From the NCBI GenBank assembly GCA_043819795.1, contig JBDREN010000063.1:1-35079 (forward strand): a stretch of 35,079 nucleotides of DNA. The letters run 5' to 3'. The notes beneath the pieces are model-generated. The model saw nothing but the letters and a program-made list of their open reading frames with translations, was not told where the DNA came from and did not search any database. This DNA is from Elusimicrobiota bacterium (GTDB lineage Bacteria > Elusimicrobiota > Elusimicrobia > UBA1565). The translations under genes were made by a program, and so were the position numbers. Shown here piece after piece: positions 10,145-32,968 of this stretch (positions within the stretch are counted from its first letter, which is position 1; each line of letters opens with the position of its first letter).

Positions 10145-10299
10145 TAGGTGTCAGGCTGAAGCTTTTGAAACTTGTTGCGGAACGGTCCCGTCGTAGCCCG
10201 AGGTTGTCTCCGATCTTTTAATCCGTCCTCTGTCATGGGCTCGACAGCCGGCCAAGTGACGCCGCCCAATCTTCTCCCAAAGATTCAGCCTGACACCTA
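10145..10299. repeat. REP/MITE-like inverted-repeat element, family B (GGTGTCAGGCT...AGCCTGACACC)
   Basis: Perfect 16-bp IR TAGGTGTCAGGCTGAA (10145-10160) / TTCAGCCTGACACCTA (10284-10299). The right arm overlaps the polB stop. Related element at 34877. Confidence 0.75.
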
Positions 10300-12728: not shown

Positions 12729-12732
12729 GGCC

Positions 12733-13344: not shown

Positions 13345-13359
13345 GGGAGCCTCCCTTTT

Positions 13360-13947
13360 TTAGCGGTCGTAGCGGCGGATGAGGCCGACGACTTTCCCGA
13401 CGATCTTGAAGTCCTTCGCGATCGGCGGGTAGGCCGGGTTGGCCGATTCCAGGCGGCGGTCCCGGCCCCGCCGCGCGAGCCGCTTGACGACGCCCTCGTC
13501 CTGGACGAGGGCGACCACGATGTCGCCGTCCTCGGCGGCGTCCTGCCGGCGCACCTGGACGAGGTCGCCCTCGAGTATGCCGGCCGCGTCCATGCTGTCG
13601 CCGCGCACGCGCAGGAGGAAGTGGGCCCCCCGCAGGAGGTCCTTGTCGGGGTCGACGTAGCCTTCGATATCCTCCTGGGCGATCATGCCCTCGCCGGCCC
13701 CGACCCTACCGAGGATGGGCAGGCGCAGGGGATGCGACGCGAGGCTCAGTCCCCGGCTGATCGCGCCCATGCGCTTGATGAGCCCTTTTTCCGCGAGGAC
13801 CTTGAGGTGATAGGCCACCGAGCTCGGCGCCGCGATCCGGAAGCGCCGGCCGATCTCCCGGATCGTGGGCGGGTAGCCGTCTCCGCGGATGGCGTCCGTG
13901 ATGAACGCGAAGATTCTCTTCTGCAGCTGCGTGATTTGAGTGGACAT
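13360..13947 (-). CDS. lexA: SOS repressor LexA, 195 aa
   Basis: wHTH GYPPTIREIG...YHLKVLAEKGLI, cleavage site GRVGA-G, catalytic Ser (VRGDSM) and Lys (VVKRL). Confidence 0.95.
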   Translation of the reverse strand: MSTQITQLQKRIFAFITDAIRGDGYPPTIREIGRRFRIAAPSSVAYHLKVLAEKGLIKRMGAISRGLSLASHPLRLPILGRVGAGEGMIAQEDIEGYVDPDKDLLRGAHFLLRVRGDSMDAAGILEGDLVQVRRQDAAEDGDIVVALVQDEGVVKRLARRGRDRRLESANPAYPPIAKDFKIVGKVVGLIRRYDR

Positions 13948-16176: not shown

Positions 16177-16569
16177 TCAGTTCATCCGCGCCTTGTCCCG
16201 AGGCCGATGCCGGGCGCTGCGGGCGCCCCGCGTCGCCGGCTTCGCGCTCTTGGCGACCGCGGAGAGGATCTCGAGCTCGGAGATGACGCGGAAGGGGCGC
16301 GCGTTGGTGGTGGCCGCGCCGGTCTCAGTGAGTACCCTCGCGACGACCTTGTGGCTTCCCGCCGGGGCGCAATGCCAGTCGTACCACCAATACCCCATCG
16401 AGGGCCTGCAGGCCCGCCAGGGGCTGCCGTCGATCGACAATTCCACCTGGCCGTGGACTTTGGCCTCGATCCGGAACGAGTAGTGGCGGGGCAATATCCG
16501 CTCGTGAAGCTGCGGGTAGTTGATGAGTATCTTCGTCCCGGTGATCCTTCTAGCCGACTTGACAGCCAT
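16177..16569 (-). CDS. Hypothetical protein, probable small Ig-like beta-sandwich, 130 aa
   Basis: GGAGGAG RBS. The VELSIDGSPW...WWYDW...GSHKVVARV pattern resembles bacterial Ig-like domains. Confidence 0.65.
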   Translation of the reverse strand: MAVKSARRITGTKILINYPQLHERILPRHYSFRIEAKVHGQVELSIDGSPWRACRPSMGYWWYDWHCAPAGSHKVVARVLTETGAATTNARPFRVISELEILSAVAKSAKPATRGARSARHRPRDKARMN

Positions 16570-16583
16570 CTCGATCTCCTCCA

Positions 16584-16772
16584 GTCGCAGAGGCCTTGCG
16601 CAAACGTCCCTGTCCGATGTTTTCTCCGGTGGTTGTTAAGGGCGGCTTCTACTCCAACGCCACGTGGCGGACCTTCGCCTGCTCTACTCTTTGGAAGGAG
16701 CTGCTTCAGGAGGCCGTTGTCGTGGTTGGCTGTCCCCGCGTCAGGGCCGACGTGTTACCTCACCTCTGCGAC
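16584..16772. ncRNA. Candidate ~190-nt structured RNA / leader, family and strand unresolved
   Basis: The ends pair (GTCGCAGAGG / CCTCTGCGAC), with further nested stems. A minus-strand promoter TTGCCA-17-TACCGT lies at 16822-16794. Confidence 0.35.
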
Positions 16773-16833
16773 GAATGCTGACGACTGCGGAACACGGTAT
16801 CATTTAATCCCCATTTTGGCAACAATCTCAAGC

Positions 16834-16850
16834 TTGGTGTTTTTGTTGCT
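16834..16850 (+). promoter_or_regulatory. sigma54-type -24/-12 promoter of the cytochrome c operon
   Basis: TTGGTGTTTTTGTTGCT: GG at 16836-37, 10 nt, GC at 16848-49. Confidence 0.6.
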
Positions 16851-16863
16851 AATATCTACTTGA

Positions 16864-18075
16864 ATGTCCGCCATAGACATGAGGTCCGCTCTCCGGAAGT
16901 CCGTCGCTTTCCTCTCCTCGATCGAGCTTGGGATCGCGTCGCTTGTCCTCCTGATGATCCTCGTCGTGCTTTGCACGCTCGACCAGGTGAATATCGGGAC
17001 ATTCGGGGCCGTCGAGAAATACTTCCGCAGCTTCTTCCTTTACGGCCGGCTGCCGCTGGCGGGCTGGCGCGTCCCCGTCTTCCCCGGGGGCGCCCTCGTG
17101 GGGGGACTGCTCCTCGCGAACGTGACCGCTTCGGCGGTGGCTCGCTTCCAGCTGCGGCTCTCCAAGACGGGCGTCTGGATGATCCACCTGGGCCTCATGC
17201 TGCTGATCCTCGGCGAGTTCGTCACGGGGGTCTTCTCGGTCGAGACGCAGATGGCGATCGAGGAGGGGGCCTCGCGCGACTACTCGGAGAGCCCGCGCCG
17301 CGCCGAGCTCGTGGTCATTGACGGGTCCGAGGCCGCTCACGACAAGGTGTTCAGCGTCGGCGAGTCCTCCCTGCGCGAGGGCAGGGAATTCCATCATCCC
17401 GCATGGCCGTTCTCTCTGCGGGTGGCTGCCTACTTCTCGAACTCGGCGATCGGCCGCAGGCCGGACAGCGACGCTCTGCCCCCTTCGCGCGCCGACCGGG
17501 GAGCGGGCCGCGATCTGGTGGTGCGGCCCCTGGCCCGCGCGGCGCGAGACGACGTGCGGAACCAGCCCGCGGCCTTCGTCGAGCTGCTCGCCGAAGGGCG
17601 CTCCCTCGGGACATGGCTCGTGGGCAGCGCCCTCGGGCGGCTTGAGACCTTCTCCCATGAGGGGAGGACGTACGCCCTGGGCATGCGTCCGCTCCGGCGC
17701 CACATGCCCTTCACGCTCACGCTCAAGGACTTCCGTCACGACGTCTACCCGGGGACCGAGATACCGAAGAACTTTTCCAGCCGGGTGCGTCTCACGCATC
17801 CCGAGAAGGGCGAGGCCCGGGACGTCCTGATCTACATGAACCATCCCTTGCGGTACCTGGGCAGGACGTTCTACCAGGCCAGCTACGGCAAGAACGACAC
17901 TCTATCGGTGCTCCAGGTCGTCGAGAATCCGGGATGGCTCTTGCCTTATATCGCGTTCATCATGATGGCCCTGGGGCTCGCCTTCCAGTTCACGTTCCAT
18001 CTGCTCAGGTTCCGGCCAGCCGGGGCCAAGGGAGCTGTCGAGCCGGACGCGGCCCGCTCGAGGGGGGGGCGGTGA
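16864..18075 (+). CDS. resB: Cytochrome c biogenesis protein, ResB/CcsB family (system II)
   Basis: N-terminal TMs, conserved IHLGLMLL His, YPGTEIPKNFSS, MNHPLRY..TFYQASY, and a C-terminal TM. The start could instead be ATG 16879. Confidence 0.85.
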   Translation: MSAIDMRSALRKSVAFLSSIELGIASLVLLMILVVLCTLDQVNIGTFGAVEKYFRSFFLYGRLPLAGWRVPVFPGGALVGGLLLANVTASAVARFQLRLSKTGVWMIHLGLMLLILGEFVTGVFSVETQMAIEEGASRDYSESPRRAELVVIDGSEAAHDKVFSVGESSLREGREFHHPAWPFSLRVAAYFSNSAIGRRPDSDALPPSRADRGAGRDLVVRPLARAARDDVRNQPAAFVELLAEGRSLGTWLVGSALGRLETFSHEGRTYALGMRPLRRHMPFTLTLKDFRHDVYPGTEIPKNFSSRVRLTHPEKGEARDVLIYMNHPLRYLGRTFYQASYGKNDTLSVLQVVENPGWLLPYIAFIMMALGLAFQFTFHLLRFRPAGAKGAVEPDAARSRGGR

Positions 18076-19865
18076 AGCGGCTTTTGCCCTGGGTCCTGAC
18101 GGCGGCCGGCGCGCTCTACGCGTTGACCGGGATCCGGGCTCCGGGAGACGGCGGGACCGGGGCCTTCGGCGGGCTCCCGGTGCTGCACAACGGGCGGGTC
18201 AAGCCCATGGACAGCGTCGCCCGGAACGCGCTGCTGACGCTCCGCGGCAAGCAGTCCGTCCGGGAGGAAGGCGTCCGGCTGGACGCGGTCTCGTGGCTGC
18301 TCGAGCTGATGGCGCGGCCGGACGCGGCGGACGAGCGCAAGGTGTTCCGTATCGACGACCCCGACGTGCTCGGCCTGCTGGGCCGCAGGGCGGGGCGGCG
18401 GCGGTACTATTCCTTCGCCGAGCTTAGGCCGCAGCTGGAGGAGATCGAGAGTCAGTCGCACCGGGCCGAAGGCGTGCAGGCGCAGCTTCGCACCCGCTTC
18501 GAGGCGAGCGTCGTCAATCTCTACCGTCAGCTGTCGCTATACCATCGCCTGAAGAACACGCTGCGCCTGGCCGAGACCGAGGACTTCGGCGGCGAGCTGC
18601 GGGAGTTCGAGGGGCTGCTCGCCGACAACGATCGGCTCGTGAAGGCGGCCGGCTTTTTCGGGCGCTACGGCTTTCTCGCCGACATCGCCTACTTCCGTCC
18701 CCTGCCGCCCCGCGCGGGCGAGGACCCCGGCTCCTGGGTCAGCGTGGGGGAGGGGCTGCTGGGCGCGGCGCACGACGGGGGCCTGCGTCCCGGGGTCCGC
18801 GCCTACGCGGAGATGCTCGACGCGTTCCGCGCGGGCGACATGGAGGCTTTCGGCCGGCGCGTCGAGGGCTTCGAGCGTCTCTTGGCGGAGCGCTCTCCTG
18901 CCGCGGCGGCGAAGGCGCGCCGCGAGGCCCTGCTCAACCGGCTCCAGCCGTTCGCCAAGGGGATGCTCCTCTACGTGGCGGTCTTTCTGCTAGGGTGCCT
19001 TTCCTGGCTGGCGTGGACGGGCCCGTTGCGGCGCTCGGCCTTCGCCCTGCTCGTGCTGGCTTTCGGCATCCACACGCTGGGGATGGCGGCGAGGATGGTT
19101 CTGGAGGGCCGCCCTCCGGTCACGAACCTCTACTCCTCGGCCGTGTTCGTCGGATGGGGGGGCGTGCTCCTGGGGCTCGTCCTCGAGCGGCTCTACCGGC
19201 GCGGCGTCGGCTCGCTGACGTCCGCGGCGGTCGGCTTCTGCACGCTGCTGATCGCGCACCACCTGTCCGTGGGCGGGGACACGCTGGAGATGATGCAGGC
19301 GGTCCTGGATTCCAACTTCTGGCTGGCGACGCACGTGATCACCATCACGCTCGGCTACAGCTCCGTGTTCCTGGCCGGCGCGCTCGCTCACGTCTACCTG
19401 GTCGGAAGGCTGACGGGCCGGCTCGGCAAGGACATGGGCAAGGAGCTGGCCCAGATGACCTATGGGATCGTCTGCTTCTCGCTTCTGTTCAGCTTCATCG
19501 GGACCGTGCTGGGCGGGATCTGGGCCGACCAGTCCTGGGGGCGCTTCTGGGGATGGGACCCGAAGGAGAACGGCGCGCTGTTGATCGTCCTTTGGCAGGC
19601 GCTGATCCTGCACTCCCGGTGGGGCGGGCACATCCGTGAGCGCGGGCTCATGGTGATGGCCGTGTTCGGGAACATCCTGACCGCGCTGTGCTGGTTCGGC
19701 GTCAACATGCTGGGCGTCGGCCTGCATTCCTACGGGTTCATGGACAAGGCGACTTTCTGGCTGGCCGCCTTCACCGCTTCGCAGCTGGCGGTCATGGGAA
19801 CGGCCGCGCTGCCCTCCGGATGGCTCGGGGGCATGTCCGTCGCGGGAGATAAGCGGGAGCGATGA
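18072..19865 (+). CDS. ccsA: Cytochrome c biogenesis protein CcsA/ResC with extended periplasmic domain
   Basis: WWD motif GGIWADQSWGRFWGWDPKE, GLHSYG, WLATHV, NGRVKPMDS. GTGA overlap with resB gives start 18072. Confidence 0.92.
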   Translation: MKRLLPWVLTAAGALYALTGIRAPGDGGTGAFGGLPVLHNGRVKPMDSVARNALLTLRGKQSVREEGVRLDAVSWLLELMARPDAADERKVFRIDDPDVLGLLGRRAGRRRYYSFAELRPQLEEIESQSHRAEGVQAQLRTRFEASVVNLYRQLSLYHRLKNTLRLAETEDFGGELREFEGLLADNDRLVKAAGFFGRYGFLADIAYFRPLPPRAGEDPGSWVSVGEGLLGAAHDGGLRPGVRAYAEMLDAFRAGDMEAFGRRVEGFERLLAERSPAAAAKARREALLNRLQPFAKGMLLYVAVFLLGCLSWLAWTGPLRRSAFALLVLAFGIHTLGMAARMVLEGRPPVTNLYSSAVFVGWGGVLLGLVLERLYRRGVGSLTSAAVGFCTLLIAHHLSVGGDTLEMMQAVLDSNFWLATHVITITLGYSSVFLAGALAHVYLVGRLTGRLGKDMGKELAQMTYGIVCFSLLFSFIGTVLGGIWADQSWGRFWGWDPKENGALLIVLWQALILHSRWGGHIRERGLMVMAVFGNILTALCWFGVNMLGVGLHSYGFMDKATFWLAAFTASQLAVMGTAALPSGWLGGMSVAGDKRER

Positions 19866-20329
19866 GCCAACCCGGGAAACGAGCCCCCGAGCTCTGCGAC
19901 CTGCGTTCGATGGAGGGCGAGCACCGCATGCTCGAGGACCTGCTCCGGCGCCATCAGGAGGCGCTGGTCGGCTTCGAGTTCTCGAGCGCGCTCGCCGAGC
20001 TCGAGGAGTTCGCGAGGCGCCTGCGCCGCCACATGGCGCTCGAGGAGAAGGTCCTGATCCCCGCCTACGCCGGGCTCGCGGATCTGCCGCGCGCGGGCCA
20101 GCCGGGTTTCTTCGTGGACGAGCACCGGAAGATCGAGGCCCGGATCGAGGCGATCCTGACCGCGGCCCGCAGCCTGAGCGCCGGCTCCGGGACCCGGGGC
20201 GCGGTCGTCTCCCTGCTCGAGCGGGAGATGCGGGTAAAGACCCTGCTCGAGCACCATCAGAGCCGCGAGGAGACGACGCTCCTGCCGCGGCTCGAGCGGC
20301 ATCTCGGCCGGGGCGGCCCCCCTTCCTAG
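19862..20329 (+). CDS. Hemerythrin (HHE) domain protein, 155 aa
   Basis: H...RHMALEE...EH...HHQSREE di-iron ligand pattern; ATGA overlap. Confidence 0.8.
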   Translation: MSQPGKRAPELCDLRSMEGEHRMLEDLLRRHQEALVGFEFSSALAELEEFARRLRRHMALEEKVLIPAYAGLADLPRAGQPGFFVDEHRKIEARIEAILTAARSLSAGSGTRGAVVSLLEREMRVKTLLEHHQSREETTLLPRLERHLGRGGPPS

Positions 20330-20333
20330 GCGG

Positions 20334-20864
20334 ATGAGAGCGCGCGTCTTGCCGTGCGCGGCGGTCGTTTTGTTGATTCTCTCCGCGTCCGGCCTCATGG
20401 CCGAGAAAGGACCGGGCGCCGGAACGCCGGCGCCGAAATCGCCTTCCGCGTCGACCTACCGGGGCGCCGCCAAGTGCAAATGGTGCCACATCGACGAGTT
20501 CATGACCTGGGAGAAGACCAAGCACGCCCGGGCCTTCGAGGCGCTGCTGGGCGACGAGAAGGAGGATCCGGAGTGCGTCGGGTGCCACAGCACCGGCTTC
20601 GGCGAGGGCGGCTACGGGATGGGCGGGCCGGAGGGGGAGAACAGGAGGTTCCTGGGCGTCCAGTGCGAAGCCTGCCACGGCCCGGGCCGCGCGCACGTCA
20701 GGGCGCCGAGCGCGGACACCATCACGAGGACACCCGCGGGCTGCGCCCGGTGCCATGACGCGCACCGGGAGTGCGCGTCCCGCCCCCACGGGGCGGGACG
20801 CGGGAATAGGAGGGGGCAGAGCCATCGCCCCTCGCTTGAGCGGCCCCCCGCGGGGGGCCGCTGA
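20334..20864 (+). CDS. Periplasmic tetraheme cytochrome c (c554-like)
   Basis: Signal peptide; CKWCH, CVGCH, CEACH (GVQCEACHGPG), CARCH. Confidence 0.88.
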   Translation: MRARVLPCAAVVLLILSASGLMAEKGPGAGTPAPKSPSASTYRGAAKCKWCHIDEFMTWEKTKHARAFEALLGDEKEDPECVGCHSTGFGEGGYGMGGPEGENRRFLGVQCEACHGPGRAHVRAPSADTITRTPAGCARCHDAHRECASRPHGAGRGNRRGQSHRPSLERPPAGGR

Positions 20865-20949
20865 CTCTACCACGGGAAAGGACGAGAAACAGGAGGGGAA
20901 GGAACCATCGCCCCCCTACTTGAGCGGCCCCCGCGGGGGGCCGCTGACT
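20808..20949. repeat. Two direct copies (period 83 bp) of a ~59-bp double-hairpin unit between convergent operons
   Basis: AGGAGGGG..CCATCGCCCC..CTTGAGCGGCCCCC(C)GCGGGGGGCCGCTGACT at 20808-20866 and 20891-20949. Confidence 0.75.
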
Positions 20950-20961
20950 TGGGGCCGCCGA

Positions 20962-22317
20962 TTATTTCTTGGGCTTGGCGATCCCGTACTCTTTGAGCTT
21001 GCGCCAGAGGGTGTTGCGGCCGATCTTGAGCCGCTTGGCGGCCTCGCCCTGGTTCCCGCCGCAGGCGTCGAGCGTCGTCAGGATGTGCTCCTTCTCGACC
21101 TCGCGCAGAGGGCGGACCGCGTCCCCGCCGAACCCGGCGGACCGGACCTCGGGCGGAAGGTCCTCCGGCCGGATCTCCTCGCCGGCGGCGAGGATCACGG
21201 CCCGCTCGACCGCGTGCTCGAGCTCGCGGACGTTGCCCGACCACCGGTAGCCCAGGAGCGCCTTGGCCGCCTCCGGCGAGAAGCGGTGGGCCCGCCCGCC
21301 GTGCTTGCCGCGGGCCACCTTCAGGAACTGCTCCGCCAGCGGGAGGGTGTCCTCCGGGCGGTCCCGCAGCGGCGGGATGACGATGGGGAAGACCTTGAGC
21401 CGGTAGTAGAGGTCGTCGCGGAAGGAGCCCTTCTCCATCTCCTTTTTGAGGTCCCGGTTGGTGGCGGTGACGATCCTGGCGTTGACCTTGATGTTCCGGT
21501 TCTCACCGACGCGACGGACCTCGCCCTGCTGGAGCGCCCGCAGGAGCTTGACCTGGAGCGCCGGCGCCATCTCCCCGATCTCGTCCAGGAAGAGGGTCCC
21601 GTCGCGGGCCTCCTCGAAGAGCCCCCGCTTGTTCGCCACGGCCCCGGTGAAGGCGCCGCGGGCGTGGCCGAAGAGCTCGCTCTCCAGAAGGCCCTCGGGA
21701 AGGGCCCCGCAGTTGACGGCCACGAAGGGATGGTTGCGGCGGCCGCTCGACGAGTGGATGGCGCGCGCGATGAGCTCCTTGCCCGTCCCCGACTCTCCTT
21801 CGATGAGCACTGAGGCGTCGGTGGCCGCCACCTTGCGCACCAGGTCCAGCACGCGGTGGAACGACGGGCTCGCGTAGACGATGTTGTCGAAGCTGAACTT
21901 CCCGCGCACCTGGGCGCGCAGATGCTCGACCTCGCGCAGCAGCCTGCGGCGCTCGAGGGCCTTGTTCACCGAGATGGCCAGGGCCTCGGGCTCGATCGGC
22001 TTGGTGAGGTAGTCGAAGGCGCCGGACTTCATCGCGCGCACGGCCGAGTCGATCGTCCCGTGGCCGGTGATCATGATGACCTGAGCCTCCGGATTGCGCC
22101 GCCGCGCCTCCTCGAGGACCTTGAAGCCGTCAACCCCCGCCATCTTGAGATCGGTGATGACGAGGTCGAAGTTGCGTCTGGCCATCGCCGCGACGGCCTC
22201 CCGCCCTCCGGGCACGCTCGTGACCTGCAGCCCGAGGCGCTTGAGCTCCAGCGTGAGCACGGTCCTCAACGAGGTGTCGTCTTCTGCGAAAAGCACGGTG
22301 GTGGCGCCCGTCATCAT
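20962..22317 (-). CDS. sigma54-dependent response regulator (NtrC/AtoC/ZraR family bEBP), 451 aa
   Basis: Receiver (AEDD, TDLKM, TKP), Walker A GESGTGKE, GAFTGA, LFLDEIGE, NVRELE, and Fis-type HTH LKIGRNTLWRKL. The real start 22317 overlaps the kinase stop. Confidence 0.95.
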   Translation of the reverse strand: MMTGATTVLFAEDDTSLRTVLTLELKRLGLQVTSVPGGREAVAAMARRNFDLVITDLKMAGVDGFKVLEEARRRNPEAQVIMITGHGTIDSAVRAMKSGAFDYLTKPIEPEALAISVNKALERRRLLREVEHLRAQVRGKFSFDNIVYASPSFHRVLDLVRKVAATDASVLIEGESGTGKELIARAIHSSSGRRNHPFVAVNCGALPEGLLESELFGHARGAFTGAVANKRGLFEEARDGTLFLDEIGEMAPALQVKLLRALQQGEVRRVGENRNIKVNARIVTATNRDLKKEMEKGSFRDDLYYRLKVFPIVIPPLRDRPEDTLPLAEQFLKVARGKHGGRAHRFSPEAAKALLGYRWSGNVRELEHAVERAVILAAGEEIRPEDLPPEVRSAGFGGDAVRPLREVEKEHILTTLDACGGNQGEAAKRLKIGRNTLWRKLKEYGIAKPKK

Positions 22318-23939
22318 CCCTCCCTGTCGGTCGGCAGGACGATCGAGAAGCGCGCGCCGCTTCCTGGCGCGCTCTCGATGAGGATGTGGCCGCCGTGCGC
22401 CGAGACGATGCGTTCGGCGACGGCGAGCCCCAGCCCCGTTCCCTGCTGTTTCGTGGTGTGGAACGGCTCGAAAATCTTCGTCCGCGATTCCTCCGGGACG
22501 CCCGGGCCCGTGTCCGAGACGCGGAGGACCGCCTCTCCCTCCTCCATCCCGGTCGAGATCGCGAGGAGTCCCTTCCCGCCCATGGCCTGCAGCGCGTTCA
22601 TTACGACGTTCCACAGGACCTGGCGGAGCTGGTCCCCGTCGAAGGGGAAGGGCGGCAGGGCCTTGTCCAGGCGTTCCTCGATGCGCACCTTGCCGAGCAG
22701 CTTGGGGTCGGAGCGGATCATGCGCAGGACCTCCCGGATCGACTGGTTCAGGTCCTGCTTCTCCAGGCGCAGGCCGCGCGGCCTCGCGTACTGGAGGAAC
22801 TGGTTCAGGGTGTCGTTGAGGCGCTTGCTCTCCTTGCGGATCACGGCGAGGAGCGTCCCGCGCTCCTTGGCGGGGAGCTCGGCGTGGGAGATCGAGCTGG
22901 CCGCGGTGACGATCGAGCCGAGCGGGTTCCGGATCTCGTGGGCGACGACCGCCGCCATCGAGCCCATGGCCGCCAGCGACTCGCTCTTGGCCAGGAGCCT
23001 CTGCATCCGCTCCTGCTCCGCGACGTCCACGGCGTTCGACACGAAGCCGACGATCTCGCCGCGGGCGTCGCGGACCGCGGTGATCGAGAGGATGACGGGG
23101 ACCTCGGCGCCGTTTTTCGTCCGGTTGACCACGCGGCCCCTCCAGAACCCCTTGGAGGGATCGAGGATGTCCCGCCACAGGCGCTTGTAGAGGTCCTGGC
23201 TCGTCTGCTGCGAGCGCACGATGCGGGGGCTGCGCCCGACGGCCTCTTCCCGCTTGTAGCCGAAGCGCTGGATGAAGGCGTCGTTGACGTCGAGGATGAT
23301 CCCGTTGCGGTCGGTGTAGAACATGTAGTCGTTGGAGTTGCGGAAGCCCTGGTAGAAGGCCAGGGCCTGCCGCTCGAGCTGGCGCTGGGCGGTCAGGTCG
23401 CGGCCGATGCCGAGCAGCCAGACCTTGTCGGCGATGCGCATGGGGGTATTGCGGATCTCGACCTCCAGCCGCGAGCCGTCCTTGCGGAGGAAAGCGCCCA
23501 CCCGGGTGGCGGAGCCTGTCCGTAGGGCCTCGTCGAACAGGCGCCGGGCCTCGGTCACCTCCTCGGGCGAAGCCAGCAGGTCGAAGTAGCTGCGCCATAG
23601 CAGCTCCTCGCGCCGGTACCCGAGCAGGCGACAGGCCGCCAGGTTGACGTCCATGATGTTGCCGGAGTCCGGGTCCCGCAGGAAGATCATGTCCGCCGCC
23701 GTGTCGAAAAGCTGCCGGTACTGCCTCCGCCTCTGCCGCATTCCACGGAGCAACGGGTCGATCTTGAGGCGGAAGATGGCTCCTCCGAGCAGGATGACGA
23801 GCAGCGCGGCCGACGCGGTCACCGCGGCGGCCTTGACGAGCGGAGCCCCTCGCATGACGTAGGCGGCCGCGCCGATGGTGACGAGGGCGACTGCCGCTAG
23901 GCTCGCGATCAGGTAGGCCAGTTTTCTGCGTTCATTCAT
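22314..23939 (-). CDS. Membrane-anchored two-PAS sensor histidine kinase (NtrB/AtoS-like), 541 aa
   Basis: Two N-terminal TMs, two PAS domains, AHEIRNPL, NALQA, DTGPG, GTGLGL. Confidence 0.93.
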   Translation of the reverse strand: MNERRKLAYLIASLAAVALVTIGAAAYVMRGAPLVKAAAVTASAALLVILLGGAIFRLKIDPLLRGMRQRRRQYRQLFDTAADMIFLRDPDSGNIMDVNLAACRLLGYRREELLWRSYFDLLASPEEVTEARRLFDEALRTGSATRVGAFLRKDGSRLEVEIRNTPMRIADKVWLLGIGRDLTAQRQLERQALAFYQGFRNSNDYMFYTDRNGIILDVNDAFIQRFGYKREEAVGRSPRIVRSQQTSQDLYKRLWRDILDPSKGFWRGRVVNRTKNGAEVPVILSITAVRDARGEIVGFVSNAVDVAEQERMQRLLAKSESLAAMGSMAAVVAHEIRNPLGSIVTAASSISHAELPAKERGTLLAVIRKESKRLNDTLNQFLQYARPRGLRLEKQDLNQSIREVLRMIRSDPKLLGKVRIEERLDKALPPFPFDGDQLRQVLWNVVMNALQAMGGKGLLAISTGMEEGEAVLRVSDTGPGVPEESRTKIFEPFHTTKQQGTGLGLAVAERIVSAHGGHILIESAPGSGARFSIVLPTDREG

Positions 23940-24030
23940 CGGGACCCAACGGCCGTGGAAAGGTTATTGCGCGCTTATTGTACTGTTTTGATTTCAATAA
24001 TGGAACATTCGGAGGCTATCGGTCGTTTTT

Positions 24031-24052
24031 TAGGCAGGATTGTTGCTATAAT
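24031..24052 (+). promoter_or_regulatory. sigma54-type -24/-12 site upstream of the rpoN-like gene, overlapping a TATAAT
   Basis: TAGGCAGGATTGTTGCT (GG 24033-34, GC 24045-46); TATAAT at 24047-24052. Confidence 0.6.
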
Positions 24053-24120
24053 ATTAGGAATAAGGGCGGGTGTTTCCCGTGCTTCCGGGGCTTTACACCG
24101 GACAAAAGTTGGAGAGCGAG

Positions 24121-25212
24121 ATGCCTCAGAAACCGACGCTGGCGATGGAGCTGAAGGTGCAGAACTTCCAGCTTCTGCAGGGCCGGCTCACGGCCGCGAA
24201 GTGGCTCTCCATGTCGGAGCCGGAGGTGGTCAAGGAGATCGGCGAGCTCGAAGCGGACCCGCTGTTCCGCGAGATCATGTACGGCTGGACCCAGCAGGGG
24301 CCGATCCTCCGGCGCAGCCGCTGGCCCGCGTCCGCCCTGCATTCCGGTTTCTACGAGCTCAAGGAAGAGATCGCGGCGGGAGGCGACACCGGGGCCATCC
24401 ACGACATCCTCGACGCCAGGACCGACCTGGTGAGGCTCATCCAGCGCGTCGGGGTCGAAGCCTTCGAGCGCTACTTCCTCTACGGCGAGGAGGGCAAGTC
24501 CCTGCCGGAGGTCTGCCGCATCGCCGGGATCAGCGAGGAGGAGGGGCAGCGCATCTTGGACCTCGTGCTCGCCGTGGGGGCGCGCTCGGAGTTCTATCGG
24601 CCGGGCCTGGTCCCCGAAACGTCCGGCATCCGCTATCACTGCATCGCGTCCATCCAGCAGGACCCTCGCGATCCCGAGAACCTGTTCTTCCGGTTCCTTT
24701 CGCCCCACTGGGCGCGAGGGAGGTATGTGGTCCTTTACGACAAGCTGGAGGACTGGAAGAAGCGCAGGAGCCTGAGCGTCGAGGAGCGGCGCCGCCTTCG
24801 CCAGCTGCTCAAGCGAGTGGAGCTGCTCAACATGCGCCAGGACACGCTCTTCCGGATACTCTCGCGCGTGACCACCGAGCAGTCGTCTTACCTCCGCAGC
24901 CGAGAGAGGTCCCGGATGAGGCCGTTGAGCCTCAGGGAGCTCGCCCGGCGCATCAGCGTGGCGCCGAGCACCGTCAGCCGTGCGGTCTCCAACCGCTCGG
25001 TCCTGATGCCGTGGGGAGAGGAGGTGCCGCTCAAACTCTTGCTGACTGGCCAGCGAGTGGTCATCCTCGCGATCCTGGCGGAGTGGCGCGATCAGGGCCG
25101 TTTGGGCAAGGGCGTGACCGACGAGGAGCTCACGCGGCGTCTTGCCCATGAGTCCGGCATCACCGTCTCGCGACGGAGCGTCAACGAGTGCCGCCGGAAA
25201 CTCCTCGGCTGA
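24121..25212 (+). CDS. rpoN: Divergent, short RNA polymerase sigma54 (RpoN-like) factor, 363 aa
   Basis: Region I-like QLLQ..WLSMSEPEVVKEIGELEADPLF; HTH MRPLSLRELARRISVAPSTVSRAVSNR; TDEEL; RpoN-box variant ITVSRRSVNECRR. GGAGAG RBS before ATG 24121. Confidence 0.8.
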   Translation: MPQKPTLAMELKVQNFQLLQGRLTAAKWLSMSEPEVVKEIGELEADPLFREIMYGWTQQGPILRRSRWPASALHSGFYELKEEIAAGGDTGAIHDILDARTDLVRLIQRVGVEAFERYFLYGEEGKSLPEVCRIAGISEEEGQRILDLVLAVGARSEFYRPGLVPETSGIRYHCIASIQQDPRDPENLFFRFLSPHWARGRYVVLYDKLEDWKKRRSLSVEERRRLRQLLKRVELLNMRQDTLFRILSRVTTEQSSYLRSRERSRMRPLSLRELARRISVAPSTVSRAVSNRSVLMPWGEEVPLKLLLTGQRVVILAILAEWRDQGRLGKGVTDEELTRRLAHESGITVSRRSVNECRRKLLG

Positions 25213-25307
25213 GAGCGATTCCTTCCCGATCGCCCCCCCCGGCCGCTATCCCGCTTCATGCGCCGCCTGGGCGGCTAAATCCCCGTCGAGAGGCCCTTCT
25301 GGAAACA

Positions 25308-25324
25308 TTGGCAGTAGTGTTGCA
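25308..25324 (+). promoter_or_regulatory. sigma54-type -24/-12 promoter of the oxidoreductase operon
   Basis: TTGGCAGTAGTGTTGCA: GG at 25310-11, 10 nt, GC at 25322-23. Confidence 0.7.
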
Positions 25325-25469
25325 ATTTAGGTAAAGCGAGCGGATCGGCCCTGCCCCTGCCGCGGAGTCCCAAGGGTAGTCCTGGGTTGAGGCCGGAATC
25401 GCTGGCGCTTGCCAGGCCCCAATACGCCGGTCGGCGGGTGCCAAGTCTTCCCCTGGGGAGTCTAACTTC

Positions 25470-25730
25470 ATGGCTGCAAGGCAACCGGTCAATCTGGCAT
25501 CGGCTAAGATCCCGCATGCGAAGCTGTTCATCCTGCCGGAGCGGTGCAAAGGGTGCCGCTTCTGCATCGAGTTCTGCCCGAAGGATGTCCTCGTGGAATC
25601 CGAGGAGATCAACGCGAAGGGCTACCATTACCCGATCTCCAAGGAAGGCAAGGAGGACGCGTGCGTCCACTGCCGGTTCTGCGATCTGGTCTGCCCCGAG
25701 ATGGCTATATACACCGAGGAGGTCGAATGA
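25470..25730 (+). CDS. korD: 2x[4Fe-4S] ferredoxin; delta subunit of 2-oxoacid:ferredoxin oxidoreductase
   Basis: CKGCRFCIEFCP and CVHCRFCDLVCP; first gene of the operon. Substrate not established. Confidence 0.88.
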   Translation: MAARQPVNLASAKIPHAKLFILPERCKGCRFCIEFCPKDVLVESEEINAKGYHYPISKEGKEDACVHCRFCDLVCPEMAIYTEEVE

Positions 25731-26881
25731 GCCCTTCTGGACGAGTCTTGACTGGACAGCACTTCATGCTCGGCGACCACGCGGCCGCCGAAGGAGCCTT
25801 GGCCGCGGGACTGACTTTCTTCGCCGGCTATCCCATCACCCCCTCCACCGAGATCATGGAGCGCCTCGCCGTGAGGATGCCCAAGGTGGCGGGGTGCAAG
25901 TTCGTGCAGATGGAGGACGAGCTCGCCAGCATGGCCGCGATCTGCGGAGCATCATGCGCCGGCGCGCGAAGCATGACCGCCACTTCGGGCCCCGGCTTGA
26001 GCCTGATGATGGAGAATGTGGGCCTGGCATGCATGCTGGAGCTCCCCTGCGTCGTCATCGACGTGATGCGCGGCTCGCCGTCCACGGGCCTTCCCACGGC
26101 CGTGGGCCAGGGAGACATCATCCAGACGCGCTGGGGCTCGCACGGCGACTACGCCATCGTGGCCTACTGCCCCAACTCGCCCCAGGAGTGCTTCGACCTC
26201 ACGGTCAAGGCATTCAACACGGCGGACCTTTACCGCATCCCCACCTTCGTGCTGATGGACGAGGTGATCGGGCATATGACCGAACGCGTGGTCATCCCCG
26301 AGCCGGGCGAGATCCCGCGCGCTCACCGGAAGCGTCCGTCGAAGCCGGCCAACGGCGGGGAGTTCTTTCCGTTCCGGGCGGACGGGGACATGATCCCTCC
26401 GATGGTCCACGCCGGCGAGGGCTACAAGGTCCATTTCACCGGCCTGACCCACAACGAGAAGGGCTATCCGGACCTCACCGCGCAGGCGCACGACGCCTTG
26501 GTGCGGAGGCTGATCAATAAGGTCAGGCTCAACGCCAAGGCGATCGTCGAGTTCGAGGAAGTCGGCCTTGACGACGCCGAGGTGGTGGTGGTGGCTTTCG
26601 GCTGCACCTCCCGGTCGGCCCGGAGCGCCGTCGCCATGGCGCGCGAGAAGGGCGTCCGGGCGGGTTTCCTCCGGCCCATCACGCTTTGGCCCTTCCCCGA
26701 GGACCGGCTGCGGCGAGTTATAGAAAAAGGGAACGTAAAACGCTTCGTTGTTCCAGAATTGAACATGGGCCAGGTCGCGCGGGAGGTGGAGCGCATCACC
26801 CAGCTCCCCGTCGTGCGCGTCAACCACCTGGGTGGGACCATGCTGATGCCGGAGGGCATCTTGGAGGGGGTGCTCAAGTGA
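25727..26881 (+). CDS. korA: 2-oxoacid:ferredoxin oxidoreductase alpha subunit
   Basis: AGYPITPSTE, QMEDE, TATSGPG, RGSPSTG, ELNMGQ; ATGA overlap. Confidence 0.92.
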   Translation: MSPSGRVLTGQHFMLGDHAAAEGALAAGLTFFAGYPITPSTEIMERLAVRMPKVAGCKFVQMEDELASMAAICGASCAGARSMTATSGPGLSLMMENVGLACMLELPCVVIDVMRGSPSTGLPTAVGQGDIIQTRWGSHGDYAIVAYCPNSPQECFDLTVKAFNTADLYRIPTFVLMDEVIGHMTERVVIPEPGEIPRAHRKRPSKPANGGEFFPFRADGDMIPPMVHAGEGYKVHFTGLTHNEKGYPDLTAQAHDALVRRLINKVRLNAKAIVEFEEVGLDDAEVVVVAFGCTSRSARSAVAMAREKGVRAGFLRPITLWPFPEDRLRRVIEKGNVKRFVVPELNMGQVAREVERITQLPVVRVNHLGGTMLMPEGILEGVLK

Positions 26882-27786
26882 GTCAAAAGAACGTCACCAT
26901 CGTAGACAAACATCCGAACGATCACCTGTTCCGGGCGGACCGGTTTCCGCATATCCTGTGCCCGGGCTGCGGGGTGGGGCCGGCCATGCAGTGCTACGCC
27001 AACGCCATGGTCGAGTCCGGCTATCCCCTCGACAAGCACGTGTGCGTCTCGGGCATCGGCTGCTCGGGCCGGACCGCGGGCTACGTCAACGTCGACTCCT
27101 ACCACAGCACCCACGGCCGGGCCATCCCCTTCGCCTTGGGCATCGCCGTGACCAACCCCGAGCTGCGGGTGACCGTGTTCAGCGGGGACGGGGACCTCAT
27201 CTCCATCGGAGGCAACCACTTCATCCACTCGGCGAGGCGCAACGTGGACCTCACCGTCATCTGCGTCAACAACTTCAACTACGGCATGACGGGCGGGCAG
27301 GCGGGACCCACCACGCCGCTGGGGGCCAAGGCGAGCACGGCCCCCTACGGGAACGCGGAGCGGCCTTTCAACCTGCCCTATCTGGCGGCGGCCGTCGGCG
27401 CTCCCTTTGTGGCGCGATGGACTTCCCTGCACGTCCGGCAACTCAAGGACGCCATGGTCCGGGCCATCAAGAAGAGGGGCTTCTCGTTCGTCGAGGTCCT
27501 CGCCCCGTGCCCGACCGGCTTCGGCCGGCCCAACAACATCGGCGACAGCCTGGAGGAGATGGGGCGCTACCGGACCCGCTGCGTCGTGGACCACAAGGCC
27601 CCGCTCGACGAGCTCGACATCGACCTCCGCGACACCGACAAGCCGTTCGTCCTGGGCAACTTCGTGGACATCGACAAGCCGTGCTACCGGCCGCCGATGA
27701 TGCAGCAGAGCCCGGCGGAGGAGTTCGGCCCGCCTCGGGACCACGGGGTGGCGCAAACGACGGCGGGTCTGGAGGGGCACCAGTGA
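26878..27786 (+). CDS. korB: 2-oxoacid:ferredoxin oxidoreductase beta (TPP-binding) subunit
   Basis: CPGCG, SGIGCS, HGRA, GDGD...NN, YGMTGGQ, PCPT; GTGA overlap. Confidence 0.92.
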   Translation: MSQKNVTIVDKHPNDHLFRADRFPHILCPGCGVGPAMQCYANAMVESGYPLDKHVCVSGIGCSGRTAGYVNVDSYHSTHGRAIPFALGIAVTNPELRVTVFSGDGDLISIGGNHFIHSARRNVDLTVICVNNFNYGMTGGQAGPTTPLGAKASTAPYGNAERPFNLPYLAAAVGAPFVARWTSLHVRQLKDAMVRAIKKRGFSFVEVLAPCPTGFGRPNNIGDSLEEMGRYRTRCVVDHKAPLDELDIDLRDTDKPFVLGNFVDIDKPCYRPPMMQQSPAEEFGPPRDHGVAQTTAGLEGHQ

Positions 27787-28322
27787 GAACAGAGATTCAG
27801 ATAGCGGGCTTCGGCGGTCAGGGGATGGTCCTCGCGGGGATGCTCCTCGGGAAGGCGGCATCCCTCTACGACGGCAAGGAAGCGGTCTTCACGCAGTCCT
27901 ACGGCCCGGAGGCTCGCGGCGGCGCTTCCTGCGCGAACGTGGTCATCGAAGACATACCCGTGGATTTTCCCCTGGTCACCAAGCCGGATATCCTGGTGGC
28001 CATGTTCCAGGAGGCGTACGCCAAGTACCGGCCCCGGCTCAAGAAGGGCGGGACTTTGATCCTGGACACCGGCTTGGTCAAGCCGGAGACGGCGGATAGG
28101 AAGTGCGCGGGGCTGCCGGCGACCCGCGTGGCCGAGGAGCTCGGCAGGCGGATCGTGGCGAACGTGGTGATGTTCGGCTACGTCGTCGGCCTGACCGGGG
28201 TCATCAGCCGCGAAGCCGCGGAGAAGGCCATCCATTCCACGGTCAAGCCCAAGACCGTGAACCTAAACCTAAAGGCGTTCGCGGCCGGCTTCGACCGCGC
28301 GCGGGAGAAGGTGACAGCGTGA
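27783..28322 (+). CDS. korC: 2-oxoacid:ferredoxin oxidoreductase gamma subunit
   Basis: AGFGGQG, YGPEARGG, NLKAF; GTGA overlap. Confidence 0.92.
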   Translation: MRTEIQIAGFGGQGMVLAGMLLGKAASLYDGKEAVFTQSYGPEARGGASCANVVIEDIPVDFPLVTKPDILVAMFQEAYAKYRPRLKKGGTLILDTGLVKPETADRKCAGLPATRVAEELGRRIVANVVMFGYVVGLTGVISREAAEKAIHSTVKPKTVNLNLKAFAAGFDRAREKVTA

Positions 28323-31300
28323 GCGATTCGATACTGATCATCGGCGGAGGCATAGCGGGCATCCAGGCGGCGCTCGACCTGGCGGAGGCCGGGTCCCGCG
28401 TGATCCTGGTGGAGAAGTCGCCGTCCATCGGCGGCAAGATGGCGGTGCTCGACAAGAACTTCCCGACGCTGGACTGCTCGATCTGCATCGAGGCCCCCAA
28501 GATGAGCGAGGTGGGCCAGAACAAGAACATCGAGATCCTCAGCCCGGCCGAGGTGGTGGGGCTGGAGGGCGAGCCCGGCAGCTTTAAGGTGAAGATCCGC
28601 AAGCAGAACCGCATGGTGACCGACGAGTGCACGCGCTGCGACCTGTGCTCGCAGGCCTGCCCGCAGGTGCTTCCCAACGAGTTCGACTCCGGGATGGCCT
28701 TCCGGAAGGCCGTCTACACCCCCATCACTCAGGCGGTGCCGAGCCCCTATCTCGTGGACCTCGACAACTGCCTCAACGACCCGCCCAACTACATGCCCTG
28801 CCAGCGCTGCGTGGACGCGTGCCTGCCCAAGTGCATCGACTTCGGCATGCCGCGCGAGGAGATCGTGGAGCGCGAGGCCGCCTCGGTCATCGTGGCCGTG
28901 GGCTACGACCTCATGCCCGGCGAGCGGATGAAGGAGTACGGCTACGGGACCCATCCCGACATCCTCACCTCCATGGAGCTCGAAAGGCTGCTGACCTCCG
29001 CGGGCCCCACGGGGGGCGAGATCCTCAGGCCCTCGGACGGCAAGCACGCGCACAACGCCCTGATGGTGCTGTGCGTCGGCTCGCGCGACCAGCGCTACTT
29101 CAGGCACTGCTCCCGCTTCTGCTGCATGTACACCGCGAAGCACGCGTTCCAGATGATGGACCACGGGGTCAAGGACCTCACGATCCTCTACATGGACCGG
29201 CGGGCCTACGGCAAGGGCTTCGACGAGTTCTGGACGAGGACGGCCACCGACGGGGCGAAGTACGTCCGCGGGCGGCTGGCCAGCGTGAAGCCCAAGGAGG
29301 GCGGCGGCCTCACGGCGACCTACGAGAGCACGAAGGAAGGGAAGCTCGTGAAGCGGGACTTCGAGATGGTTGTGCTCGCGACGGCGGTCCAGCCCTCGGC
29401 CGGCATGGAGGAGCTCGCTCAGGCCCTCGGCATCGAGCTCGACACCGACGGCTTCGTCAAGGCCGTGGAGACCAAGGGAGGCCTCATCCACACGACCCGC
29501 CCCGGCATCTACGCGGCGGGCTGCGCCTCGGGCGCCAAGGACATCCCGGATTCGGTGGCGGAGGGCGGAGCCGCGTCGGTCCTCGCCCTGGGCCACTTGG
29601 ACAAGCGGACCTGGCCGGAGGAGGAGGAGGTCGAGCCCATCACCGGTATCGAGACCGCGCGCATCGGCGTGTTCGTATGCCACTGCGGCTCCAATATCGC
29701 CGGCGTGGTGGACGTCGATCGAGTCACCGAGTACGCCAAGAAGCTCCCCGGCGTCGTGTACGCCCAGTCGCAGATGTTCTCGTGCGCGGGGAACACCCAG
29801 GCGGACATCGAGAAGGCCATCAAGGACAACGGCATCACCCGGGTCGTGGTGGCGGCCTGCTCGCCCAAGACCCACGAGATCACCTTCCGCGGCGTCCTCC
29901 ACCGGGCGGGGCTCAACCCCTACCTGCTCGAGCTGAGCAACGTGCGCAACCAGGACTCCTGGGTGCACAAGGAGCACAAGGAGGAGGCCACGATCAAGGC
30001 CATGGACATGGTGGCCATGGCGGTCGAGAAGGCGAGGCGCCTGACCCCCCTGCACGCCACGCACCAGCCCGTCATCCAGAAGGCCTTGGTCATCGGCGGC
30101 GGCGTGGCGGGCATGACGGCCGCGGCCGCGGTCGCGCGCCAGGGTTACGAGACCCATCTGGTCGAGAAGGAGGACCGGCTGGGCGGCGTCGTCGCGGACC
30201 TGGAGGATATCGCTCCCTCCGGCATCAAGGCCAAGGAGCTCATCGGAACCCTCACCAAGCAGCTCGAGTTGGGGGGCGTCCACGTCCACATGAAGACCAC
30301 CGTCGAGCTGATCAGCGGCTACGTTGGCAATTTCGAGGCCAGGCTCTCGAACGGCAAGGAGTTCAAGATCGGGGCCGTGATCCTGGCCATGGGCGCCGCC
30401 CCCTACGAGCCGACCGAGTTCGGCTACGGCGTCGACAAGAAGGTCCTCACGAACGTGGACCTTGAGGCGGCGCTGGCCAACGGCGGCCTTCCGGGCGAGA
30501 CGGTCACCTTTGTAGGCTGCGTGGGGTCGAGAAAGGACAAGGCCGGCTGCTCGCGCTACTGCTGCGCCTCCATGATCCAGCAGGCGCTGCACCTTAGGCG
30601 GCTGGGCAAGAAGGTGCGGGTGCTCTACAAGGACATCCGGACCTTCACCCGCCACGCCGAGGAGCTCTATGAGACGGCCTGCCGCGAGGGCGTGCAGTTC
30701 TTCCGCTACGACGAGGAGAAGCCGCCGGAAGAGGCCGTGCGCTTCGAGGACGGGACCGTCAGAGTCACCGACGAGATCACGGGCAGGGAGATCCGTATCC
30801 CGACGGCCCATCTGATCCTGGCCACCGCTTTGGTCCCCCGCGAGGACACCATCGCGGCGCAGCTCAAGCTGGCCAAGAGCTCGGACGGGTTCATGCTCGA
30901 GCTGCACCCCAAGCTGGGGCCGGCCGAGACCGCCTCGCAGGGCATCTACCTGGCCGGATCGATCCAGGCGCCCAAAGACGTGCGCGAGGCCATCGCCCAG
31001 GGCCTGGCAGCGGCCTCCAAGGCCTCGGGGCTTCTAGCCAAGGACACCCACGAGAAGGAGCCTTTGACGGCGAAACACGACCCGGAGAAGTGCAAGGCCT
31101 GCATGGCTTGCGTCAAGGTCTGTCCGTTCGGCGCGATCGAGCAGATCGGCAAGGTCAAGGAGGGCAGCATCAAGATCAATGAGGCCCTGTGCATGGGCTG
31201 CGGCAACTGCGCGGCCCAGTGCAACTTCGGGGCGATCGATATGCCCTTCTTCACCAAGGACCAGATCCTCGCGCAGATCGACGCCACGCTGGCCGAGAAG

Positions 31301-32964: not shown

Positions 32965-32968
32965 GACG

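Follow-up and report, generated by a model that had tools for sequence, protein, structure and literature searches.

Does a sigma-54-like gene that lies beside its own activator and between two redox operons specify a closed regulon with a promoter specificity of its own? This question is raised by a stretch of 35,079 nucleotides from an Elusimicrobiota bacterium (assembly GCA_043819795.1, contig JBDREN010000063.1, positions 1 to 35,079 of the forward strand; hereafter the window, also contig C63), in which a gene for a compact sigma-54-like protein of 363 amino acids (P0001) is divergent from genes for a PAS-domain histidine kinase and an NtrC-type bacterial enhancer-binding protein (bEBP). 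A first-pass annotation of this DNA had described the arrangement, including the GAFTGA loop of the activator and the redox operons on both sides, and Pfam analysis together with the translation of the bEBP gene confirmed it. The same annotation had read the locus as a self-contained regulon served by a dedicated sigma-54 paralog with shifted promoter specificity. We favour, with a probability of about 0.7, the view that P0001 is a working compact sigma-54 of a family typical of the phylum, that it belongs to a conserved kinase-bEBP-sigma module in which the sigma gene itself has a sigma-54-type promoter, and that this module feeds a genome-wide network of -24/-12 sites before redox genes. The evidence consists of homology, gene order, the sites and their enrichment, and a phylum-wide co-occurrence with bEBPs.

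The compact sigma-54-like protein

The only Pfam domain recognized in P0001 is Sigma54_DBD (PF04552; 58 bits, cut-off 22.8). Comparison of profiles extends the relationship. An alignment of 47 family members (A1) was matched by hhalign to one of 33 canonical sigma-54 proteins (A3) with a probability of 99.6%, residues 126-363 being aligned to canonical 216-461, a span which takes in the last third of the Pfam core-binding domain (CBD) region, the extra-long helix, the helix-turn-helix (HTH) and the RpoN box. In the last of these SRRSVNECRR of P0001 is aligned to ARRTVAKYR of the A3 consensus. With the N-terminal part alone the probability was 94.1% (residues 125-228), and the A1 profile matches solved sigma-54 chains with an E value of 1e-20. 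The AF2 model of P0001 (predicted local distance difference test, pLDDT, 83.9; predicted template modelling score, pTM, 0.81) retrieved sigma-54 chains in all of the top 30 rows from Foldseek and all of the top 28 rows from VIA, the best of the latter having a Z of 13.4 and a root-mean-square deviation of 7.4 over 227 residues, with model residues 15-363 paired to chain residues 12-467. Judged from these comparisons, the C-terminal two thirds of P0001 are homologous to sigma-54, the homology beginning midway through the core-binding domain and ending with the RpoN box; the N-terminal third (ca. 125 residues) is specific to the family and not recognizably sigma-54.

A number of results weigh against regarding P0001 as a sigma factor. 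The Pfam domains Sigma54_AID and Sigma54_CBD are absent (PF04963 gave no match at E≤0.01), and the equivalog threshold of TIGR02395 is not reached (the score is 68.2 bits, from the last 137 residues only, where 277 are required). The comparison with canonical sigma-54 by hhalign left residues 1-124 unaligned, a stretch which corresponds to Region I together with the minimal core-binding fragment. When residues 1-228 were modelled separately with AF2 (pLDDT 82), the model had no Foldseek matches at E≤0.001, and the 50 rows of a wide VIA search included no sigma-54, the best Z (6.6) belonging to an unrelated protein. A Region-I-like N-terminus is weakly suggested by the near-invariant E44, P47, L48 and F49 (ExDPLF), which resemble canonical ELExNPxLE, by a non-significant HMMER stretch (query 4-51 to E. 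coli 1-50, independent E value 69) and by the VIA alignments, which start at model residue 2-18 against chain residue 8-16. The proposal that the N-terminal half is a canonical CBD was rejected, since the 1-228 model matched no sigma-54 and hhalign against a single canonical sequence covered the C-terminal 140 columns only.

The missing AID and CBD matches and the lack of detectable homology in residues 1-124 would suit a free-standing DNA-binding regulator which has reused the module of extra-long helix, HTH and RpoN box, for example as a repressor or competitor at -24/-12-like sites, and which does not bind core RNA polymerase; the folds retrieved with the model of the N-terminal half are, moreover, DNA-binding folds of the winged-helix and three-helix types and not that of sigma-54. 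We consider such a regulator unlikely. It would leave the five bEBPs of this genome, four of them with an intact GAFTGA, without any sigma-54, and would orphan in the same way those of 39 genomes of other lineages. In addition, conservation takes in the extra-long helix and the C-terminal half of what Pfam defines as the CBD, and the alignment of the full-length model to sigma-54 starts at about residue 15. The A1 alignment is conserved from end to end, with the motifs ExDPLF and G-x-E-x-F-E-R-Y-F-L-Y in its N-terminal part.

Distribution of sigma-54 in the phylum

The idea of a dedicated paralog stands in part: P0001 is related to sigma-54 and far removed from canonical RpoN. No housekeeping rpoN was found beside it, however, and the second copy in the genome is equally compact. 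PF04963 gave no matches in the source genome. TIGR02395, applied at E≤10, returned the two compact genes (69.6 and 63.2 bits against the cut-off of 277) and one further, non-significant match on contig C146 (E 0.39, 11 bits). The second compact gene (P0002, contig C124) specifies 343 amino acids with 33% identity to P0001 over the full length.

The same pattern was found in a sample of 151 Elusimicrobiota genomes, in which a true bEBP was defined by E≤1e-30. PF04963 is present in a single genome (G111). PF04552 occurs in 45 genomes, representing 39 of 63 genera, and nearly always in frames of 340-430 amino acids; true bEBPs occur in 40. The DNA-binding domain and a bEBP are found together in 39 genomes, and neither is found in 105; one genome has a bEBP only and six have the domain only, among them the canonical G111, the sub-threshold G017, G029 (89% complete) and G038 (78% complete). 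Because kindred genomes are not independent these counts are descriptive and overstate the support, a point which tells against the argument from co-occurrence. The small gut-type genomes are without both, which agrees with the published finding that Elusimicrobium minutum has neither sigma-54 nor activators of it; PMC3162934 cites the Elusimicrobia as lacking sigma-54 on that basis.

The source assembly (G000) comprises 4.99 Mb in 241 contigs with a G+C content of 0.67 and is 90.3% complete, so that a canonical rpoN might have been missed and the compact protein might be an accessory paralog; one genome of the phylum does, after all, hold a canonical RpoN. This we regard as highly improbable. 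PF04963 is lacking from 150 of the 151 genomes, including genomes of the same family listed as 97% complete, and TIGR02395 yielded nothing else of significance in the source genome. The G111 protein, the only canonical RpoN in the sample (461 amino acids; G111:C163, L006:1198-2583), has its closest relatives among proteins labelled Omnitrophica (73-76% identity), which suggests transfer or mis-binning; its contig may be foreign. G111 is without a bEBP at E≤1e-30.

The compact family and its two clades

A hidden Markov model (HMM) of the family matched 63 genes in the sampled genomes over essentially the whole length of the model, and the canonical G111 protein at HMM positions 204-361 only (64.8 bits). 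Four rows were left out of later counts: canonical L093, L012 (the same record as L068), and L088 and L092, which are cut at an end. A search of 1.84 billion representatives gave 338 clusters at E≤1e-30, the best 150 listed all matching over most of the profile. At E≤0.001 there were 10,638 clusters, and the weaker ones are taken to be canonical sigma-54 matched at the C-terminus. The nearest clusters in the ESM Atlas carry the names 'hypothetical protein' or 'sigma factor 54 DNA-binding domain-containing protein' and are mostly from Elusimicrobiota, with one from Chloroflexota.

A quick IQ-TREE analysis, for which only SH-aLRT supports were calculated, shows two paralog clades within the class to which the window belongs. 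Clade A (11 rows, support 92) includes P0001 in a group of four rows with support 100; clade B (16 rows, support 89) includes P0002, joined to its G072 ortholog with support 98. The genomes G000, G072, G096, G130 and G112 each hold one copy of each clade, and the duplication is therefore old. Scans for orthologs of P0001 revealed 16 loci in metagenomes, all with 30-38% identity, and seven in genomes, two of which are orthologs.

Family genes were also seen on three contigs labelled Dehalococcoidia (L010, L011, L013). They lie at ca. 5930-7040, have 31-38% identity to P0001 and score 390-405 bits with the family HMM, and a bEBP gene follows ca. 2.3 kb downstream; L010 and L013 have in addition a near-canonical TTTTGGCA-N6-ATTGC site at ca. 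10.4-10.6 kb. In the quick tree these copies are nested among sequences from Elusimicrobiota, an indication that they were transferred horizontally or mis-binned.

Candidate promoters at the locus

The first-pass annotation had listed three GG-N10-GC sites, before resB, the sigma gene and korD, and these are present at the positions and in the orientation described (Table 1). All three have the GG-N10-GC spacing and TGTTGC, and TGGCAC occurs in none of them. They were assessed with a fixed score on the canonical consensus, TGGCACG-N4-TTGCW (maximum 6.5), which involved no training on this genome, and with a weight matrix trained without contig C63, for which the candidates were 5223 intergenic GG-N10-GC sequences in the sense orientation, with 3868 antisense controls. 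With the held-out matrix the korD site scored 18.5 bits (rank 12 of 5223) and the sigma-gene site 18.4 bits (rank 13), a single control reaching 16 bits or more; the -24/-12 character ascribed to these two sites was upheld. The resB site scored 13.0 bits (rank 38), a range in which 12 of the 3868 controls had at least 12 bits. On the canonical consensus the korD, sigma-gene and resB sites scored 5.5, 5.0 and 3.5, respectively. The features of a sigma-54-type promoter, namely GG and GC doublets 10 nt apart in a TGGC/TTGC context, facing a gene and scoring above chance, are clear for the sites at 24031 and 25308 and weak for that at 16834. The korD and sigma-gene sites are strong and the resB site is marginal. 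A search for runs recorded as RNA that contain positions 23000-27000 of the window listed none.

Some observations count against these sites as sigma-54 promoters. That before resB is not separable from background on the canonical consensus, and it has no counterpart in five relatives, where the resB orthologs (41-54% identity) lie inside operons directly after another gene. A search for an upstream activator site common to the three promoters gave only three 9-mers with a mismatch and no shared inverted repeat. The letters after the -12 element at the sigma gene (TGCTATAAT at 24045-24053) also fit an extended -10 element, and TGCTAATAT at 16847-16855, at the resB site, is likewise extended -10-like (TGnTAnAAT-like). 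With intergenic DNA that is AT-rich (0.39 against 0.33 for the genome) and a resB site at 3.5 out of 6.5, one might suppose that all three match by chance, or that they are sigma-70 promoters of the extended -10 kind. Against this stand the held-out scores of 18.4-18.5 bits, which one of the 3868 antisense controls matched, the absence of any sigma-70-type -35/-10 pair from a consensus scan of 16500-25600, the absence of a -10-like hexamer from the korD site, and the conservation in four orthologs, described below, of GGC and TGTTGC at fixed spacing without the -10-like letters. For the three sites together the explanation is distinctly unlikely; for the resB site alone it has roughly one chance in three. 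No orthologous kor operon was found with which the korD site might be compared, since within the order even the closest relatives of KorA have no more than 33-35% identity.

The ATG of resB follows the GC of its site by 14 nt, and a resB messenger RNA (mRNA) transcribed from this site would be near-leaderless. Such close spacing, with an ATG only 13-15 nt past the -12 GC, was seen in three cases (window 16850-16866, L007 10282-10298 and L007 ca. 2765-2781); sigma-54-type promoters placed in this way would give leaderless or nearly leaderless mRNAs. An alternative resB ATG at 16879 agrees better with the N-termini of the orthologs.

The conserved kinase-bEBP-sigma module

The module is syntenic among homologs. 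A bEBP gene followed by a PAS kinase gene and then by a divergent sigma gene recurs in G072 (L035) and in the groundwater metagenome-assembled genome (MAG) L007, and in L008 as far as the contig reaches. The neighbours of the module are the kor-hdr-etf genes in the window, radical-SAM genes and a flavoprotein in G072, and in L007 a por operon on the other side and a beta-eliminating lyase-feoB operon.

A -24/-12 site precedes the ATG of the sigma gene by 24-74 nt in all four orthologous loci (Table 1), and the expected conservation of this site was thereby borne out. GGC-N7-TGTTGCW blocks recur in the four sequences at fixed spacing, and both the spacer letters and the letters past the -12 element vary, which argues for a sigma-54 site and not for an extended -10. 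Sites of at least 4.5 on the consensus were found upstream of four of the other 59 family genes (L083, L050, L051 and L048, the last with a poor -12 element). Upstream of P0002 there is no -24/-12 site; by our own reading it has sigma-70-like hexamers instead. Canonical-type sites are also enriched around the family genes of other genomes (74 loci, 504 kb). Those scoring at least 5.5 number 24, and dinucleotide shuffles gave 5.8 on average (standard deviation 2.7, maximum 13, 30 shuffles); those scoring at least 6.0 number 8 against 1.3. Many of the sites near family genes have the form TTGGCA(C/T)-N5-TTGC and lie just past the bEBP gene.

Linkage to an activator is frequent throughout the family, a bEBP being encoded within the fetched flanks (ca. 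3.5 kb) of 39 of the 63 genes. In 15 cases it is directly downstream on the same strand, in 12 downstream with about one gene between, in three upstream on the same strand, in seven divergent (including the window) and in two convergent or farther off. The sigma-contacting loop was found by pattern in 34 of 40 bEBP frames, as GAFTGA, GSFTGA, GAFTDA or GSFTDA, with no pattern match in the remaining six. The bEBPs with GAFTDA or GSFTDA are among those of L044, L054, L059, L061, L064, L067, L068, L070, L073, L080, L082, L086 and L091; these loops may have co-evolved with the N-terminus of the sigma protein, which is itself divergent.

Sites elsewhere in the genome

The regions of 250 nt upstream of genes were scored with the untrained consensus. 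At a threshold of 4.5 there were 27 sense and 5 antisense sites (353 kb against 271 kb), and at 5.0 there were 14 and none; gene limits and upstream regions were those of our own crude gene caller, which detracts from the strength of this enrichment. The excess of sense sites indicates that the genome does use -24/-12-type sites. Some 20-35 sites similar to those of the locus occur elsewhere, near four other bEBPs. The genome has five in all, on C63, C124, C33 (two) and C49, with GAFTGA intact in four. Because similar sites precede many operons on other contigs the regulon is not self-contained, and the claim that it was had to be abandoned. A shifted promoter specificity is not supported either: the spacing and the GGC and TTGC cores are canonical, and the extra YG before TTGC occurs genome-wide and near other members of the family.

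The predicted targets are redox, haem, iron and iron-sulfur (Fe-S) genes throughout the genome, in keeping with the theme of anaerobic energy metabolism first proposed for the locus. YGTTGCW sites precede multihaem cytochromes, both small and very large, and hemA, all of them next to the two C33 bEBPs; another small cytochrome (C215); two further 2-oxoacid:ferredoxin oxidoreductase (OFOR) operons (C202, C226); NuoE/F-like genes (C6); a beta-eliminating lyase-feoB-dtxR operon (C96), which has a similar site in L007; radical-SAM and NifS-like genes (C32), cysK-cysE (C139) and moeA (C114); and the PAS-bEBP gene of C49 itself. Two sites read TTGGCACAWAAATTGCTCC (C48, C120). GTTGC sites are also near clade-B and other family genes (L052, L057, L083, L084), and the notion of paralog-specific promoter classes was rejected on these grounds.

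The bEBP of C124 (G000:C124:9617-10786, L032:1617-2786) has 389 amino acids, with a receiver, an AAA+ domain and GAFTGA and without a Fis-type HTH, and is encoded 7 kb from the clade-B sigma gene. To judge by its domains it would have to act without binding an enhancer.

Two groups of high-scoring sequences deserve mention. A near-identical stretch of at least ca. 45 nt (AAGGGGTGGCAGGTCCTCCGCTTC...) is found on five contigs (C7:7287, C9:325, C28:250, C92:29029, C155:347), mostly near contig ends, and probably represents one end of a mobile element present in several copies; as promoters these copies were discarded as false hits. On C232 (G000:C232:1252-2800) there are four copies of ACAGGGCAG(G/A)CTTCCTGC, ca. 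50-200 nt apart and with a promoter-like score, more likely a repeat array or a repetitive gene overlooked by the gene caller.

Proposed mechanism

Since no other sigma-54 was found and the family co-occurs with bEBPs, we infer that P0001 binds core RNA polymerase. The polymerase carrying a compact sigma-54, be it the clade-A copy or the clade-B copy of C124, would form a closed complex at GG-N10-GC promoters that read TGGC-N7-GTTGCW, and a phosphorylated NtrC-type bEBP would remodel this complex through its GAFTGA loop; the activator at this locus is most plausibly the divergent one with its PAS kinase. From the site before the sigma gene in four of four orthologs we predict that the clade-A sigma-54 is inducible and feeds forward on its own synthesis, its gene being transcribed, presumably, by holoenzyme carrying either copy. 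Further promoters are predicted before korDABG-hdr-etf and probably before resB-ccsA, and ca. 20-35 more would serve multihaem cytochromes, hemA, two OFOR operons and NuoEF-like, feoB, Fe-S, cysteine and molybdenum cofactor genes. On this evidence the locus would be a single node in a network of the sigma-54 type that spans the genome and serves anaerobic redox metabolism, and not a closed regulon.

A bolder proposal is that the free-living Elusimicrobiota and some Dehalococcoidia MAGs possess a minimal sigma-54 whose rebuilt N-terminal ca. 125 residues replace canonical Region I and the first half of the core-binding domain and co-evolved with the local bEBPs (many with GAFTDA or GSFTGA), and that it has been split into insulated sigma/bEBP cassettes, in which each paralog would respond to the adjacent activator alone, clade A recognizing YGTTGCW and clade B AWWTTGCW. 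We find this rather doubtful. If such cassettes exist they would be the sigma-54 counterpart of extracytoplasmic function (ECF)-style modular sigma systems, and a sigma-54 cascade would turn on clade A.

Comparison with known systems

Sigma-54 is regarded as very uniform, its Region I and core-binding domain being essential for the locked closed complex and the response to the activator. The gene for it usually lies next to lptB, hpf or ptsN; that for P0001 does not, and has a -24/-12 site of its own. With the canonical proteins of E. coli, Klebsiella and Aquifex aeolicus (PDB 5NWT, 5UI5, 8F1I) P0001 shares homology from the middle of the CBD to the RpoN box and, in Foldseek and VIA, the same overall fold, and the genes and sites read here have the canonical GG-N10-GC geometry and GAFTGA-bearing bEBP partners. 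The protein is without Region II, as are short forms of sigma-54 such as the Aquificota clusters of ca. 369 amino acids. It differs from the canonical proteins in its length of 363 amino acids, in its first ca. 125 residues, which are unalignable, and in having no AID or CBD match in Pfam.

Geobacter sulfurreducens is an anaerobe whose respiration relies on multihaem cytochromes. It likewise has sigma-54 control in a cytochrome-dependent anaerobe, but with a canonical, single rpoN. The second rpoN copies of rhizobia (M. loti rpoN2) are reportedly under NifA/RpoN control and, like the gene described here, would be sigma-54 genes with a sigma-54-type promoter, giving rise to a cascade or feed-forward loop, said to exist in the rhizobia and predicted in the present case. 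There the gene belongs to a symbiosis island and specifies a canonical protein, whereas here the sigma is compact, the arrangement is found in four of four orthologs and the PAS kinase and NtrC genes are divergent. The nearest precedent for dedicated pairs of sigma-54 and activator is Cereibacter (Rhodobacter) sphaeroides, which also has several copies per genome: four RpoN paralogs (RpoN1-4), each with a cognate bEBP and gene sets, according to PMC11999139, which cites Poggio 2006 for their differential promoter recognition. Those paralogs are full-length canonical RpoN with a specificity shown genetically; here both copies are compact and derive from a duplication that is old within the class, and a specificity of either copy is hypothetical.

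Searches of a paper library for sigma-54 in the Elusimicrobia found only the statement on its absence from E. minutum, and no account of the compact family. If our reading is true, a phylum with bEBPs and -24/-12 promoters has only a protein of 340-400 residues to serve them, which bears on how little of sigma-54 is needed or, alternatively, given the unrecognizable N-terminal third, on how the functions of that part can be rebuilt. The annotation would then also need correction, the genes of the family being mostly named 'hypothetical' and the Elusimicrobia being cited as sigma-54-free (PMC3162934). The sites offer a handle on the regulation of cytochromes, OFORs and iron uptake in uncultured groundwater Elusimicrobiota, and the sigma and bEBP genes, so often paired, are compact building blocks for synthetic switches of the enhancer-dependent kind.

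Features of the window

All named relatives of the proteins of the window are from Elusimicrobia or Elusimicrobiota MAGs. The principal features are collected in Table 1, in which the domains are those called by Pfam. The ATG of P0001 at 24121 has GGAGAG just before it.

Table 1. Genes and candidate -24/-12 sites of the window, with the sigma-gene sites of the orthologous loci
Feature	Position	Strand	Sequence	Remarks
-24/-12-like site before resB	16834-16850	+	TTGGTGTTTTTGTTGCT	weakest of the three
resB-ccsA-hemerythrin-multihaem cytochrome c operon	16864-20864	+		cytochrome c maturation
resB	16864-18075	+		ResB
ccsA	18072-19865	+		Cytochrom_C_asm
hemerythrin, then small multihaem cytochrome	up to 20864	+		Hemerythrin, Cytochrome_C554
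NtrC-type bEBP	20962-22314	-		receiver, sigma-54 interaction AAA+, Fis-type HTH; Sigma54_activat 238.9 bits
histidine kinase	22314-23939	-		two PAS domains; first gene of kinase-bEBP operon, divergent from sigma gene
-24/-12 site before sigma-54-like gene	24031-24047	+	TAGGCAGGATTGTTGCT	74 nt 5' of ATG
compact sigma-54-like gene	24121-25212	+		P0001, 363 amino acids, clade A
-24/-12 site before korD	25308-25324	+	TTGGCAGTAGTGTTGCA	ca. 146 nt 5' of ATG
korD, korA, korB, korG	25470-28322	+		2-oxoacid:ferredoxin oxidoreductase
HdrA/MvhD-like flavoprotein, HdrD-like CCG protein, EtfAB-like genes	28319-34794	+
sigma-gene site, window			TTTAGGCAGGATTGTTGCTATAA
sigma-gene site, L007			TTTTGGCAATCCTGTTGCATAAT
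sigma-gene site, L008			GACTGGCAGAAGTGTTGCATTAC
sigma-gene site, L035			TACTGGCGATATTGTTGCTATTA

Right after korDABG come genes for an HdrA-like double flavoprotein fused to an MvhD/FlpD domain (ca. 1146 amino acids), an HdrD-like CCG protein and EtfA/B-like proteins, a set (28319-34794) which hints at flavin-based electron bifurcation by a complex coupled to the OFOR. On the minus strand at 10297-13947, LexA (13360-13947), two small unknown open reading frames and a family-B DNA polymerase (10297-12456) are encoded in the same direction in what looks like an SOS-controlled polymerase cassette. The plus strand at 3495-7667 specifies a protein of 1390 amino acids, the only Pfam match of which is a short alpha-amylase piece, and the minus strand at 114-3215 a hybrid kinase in which five PAS domains are combined with a receiver domain.

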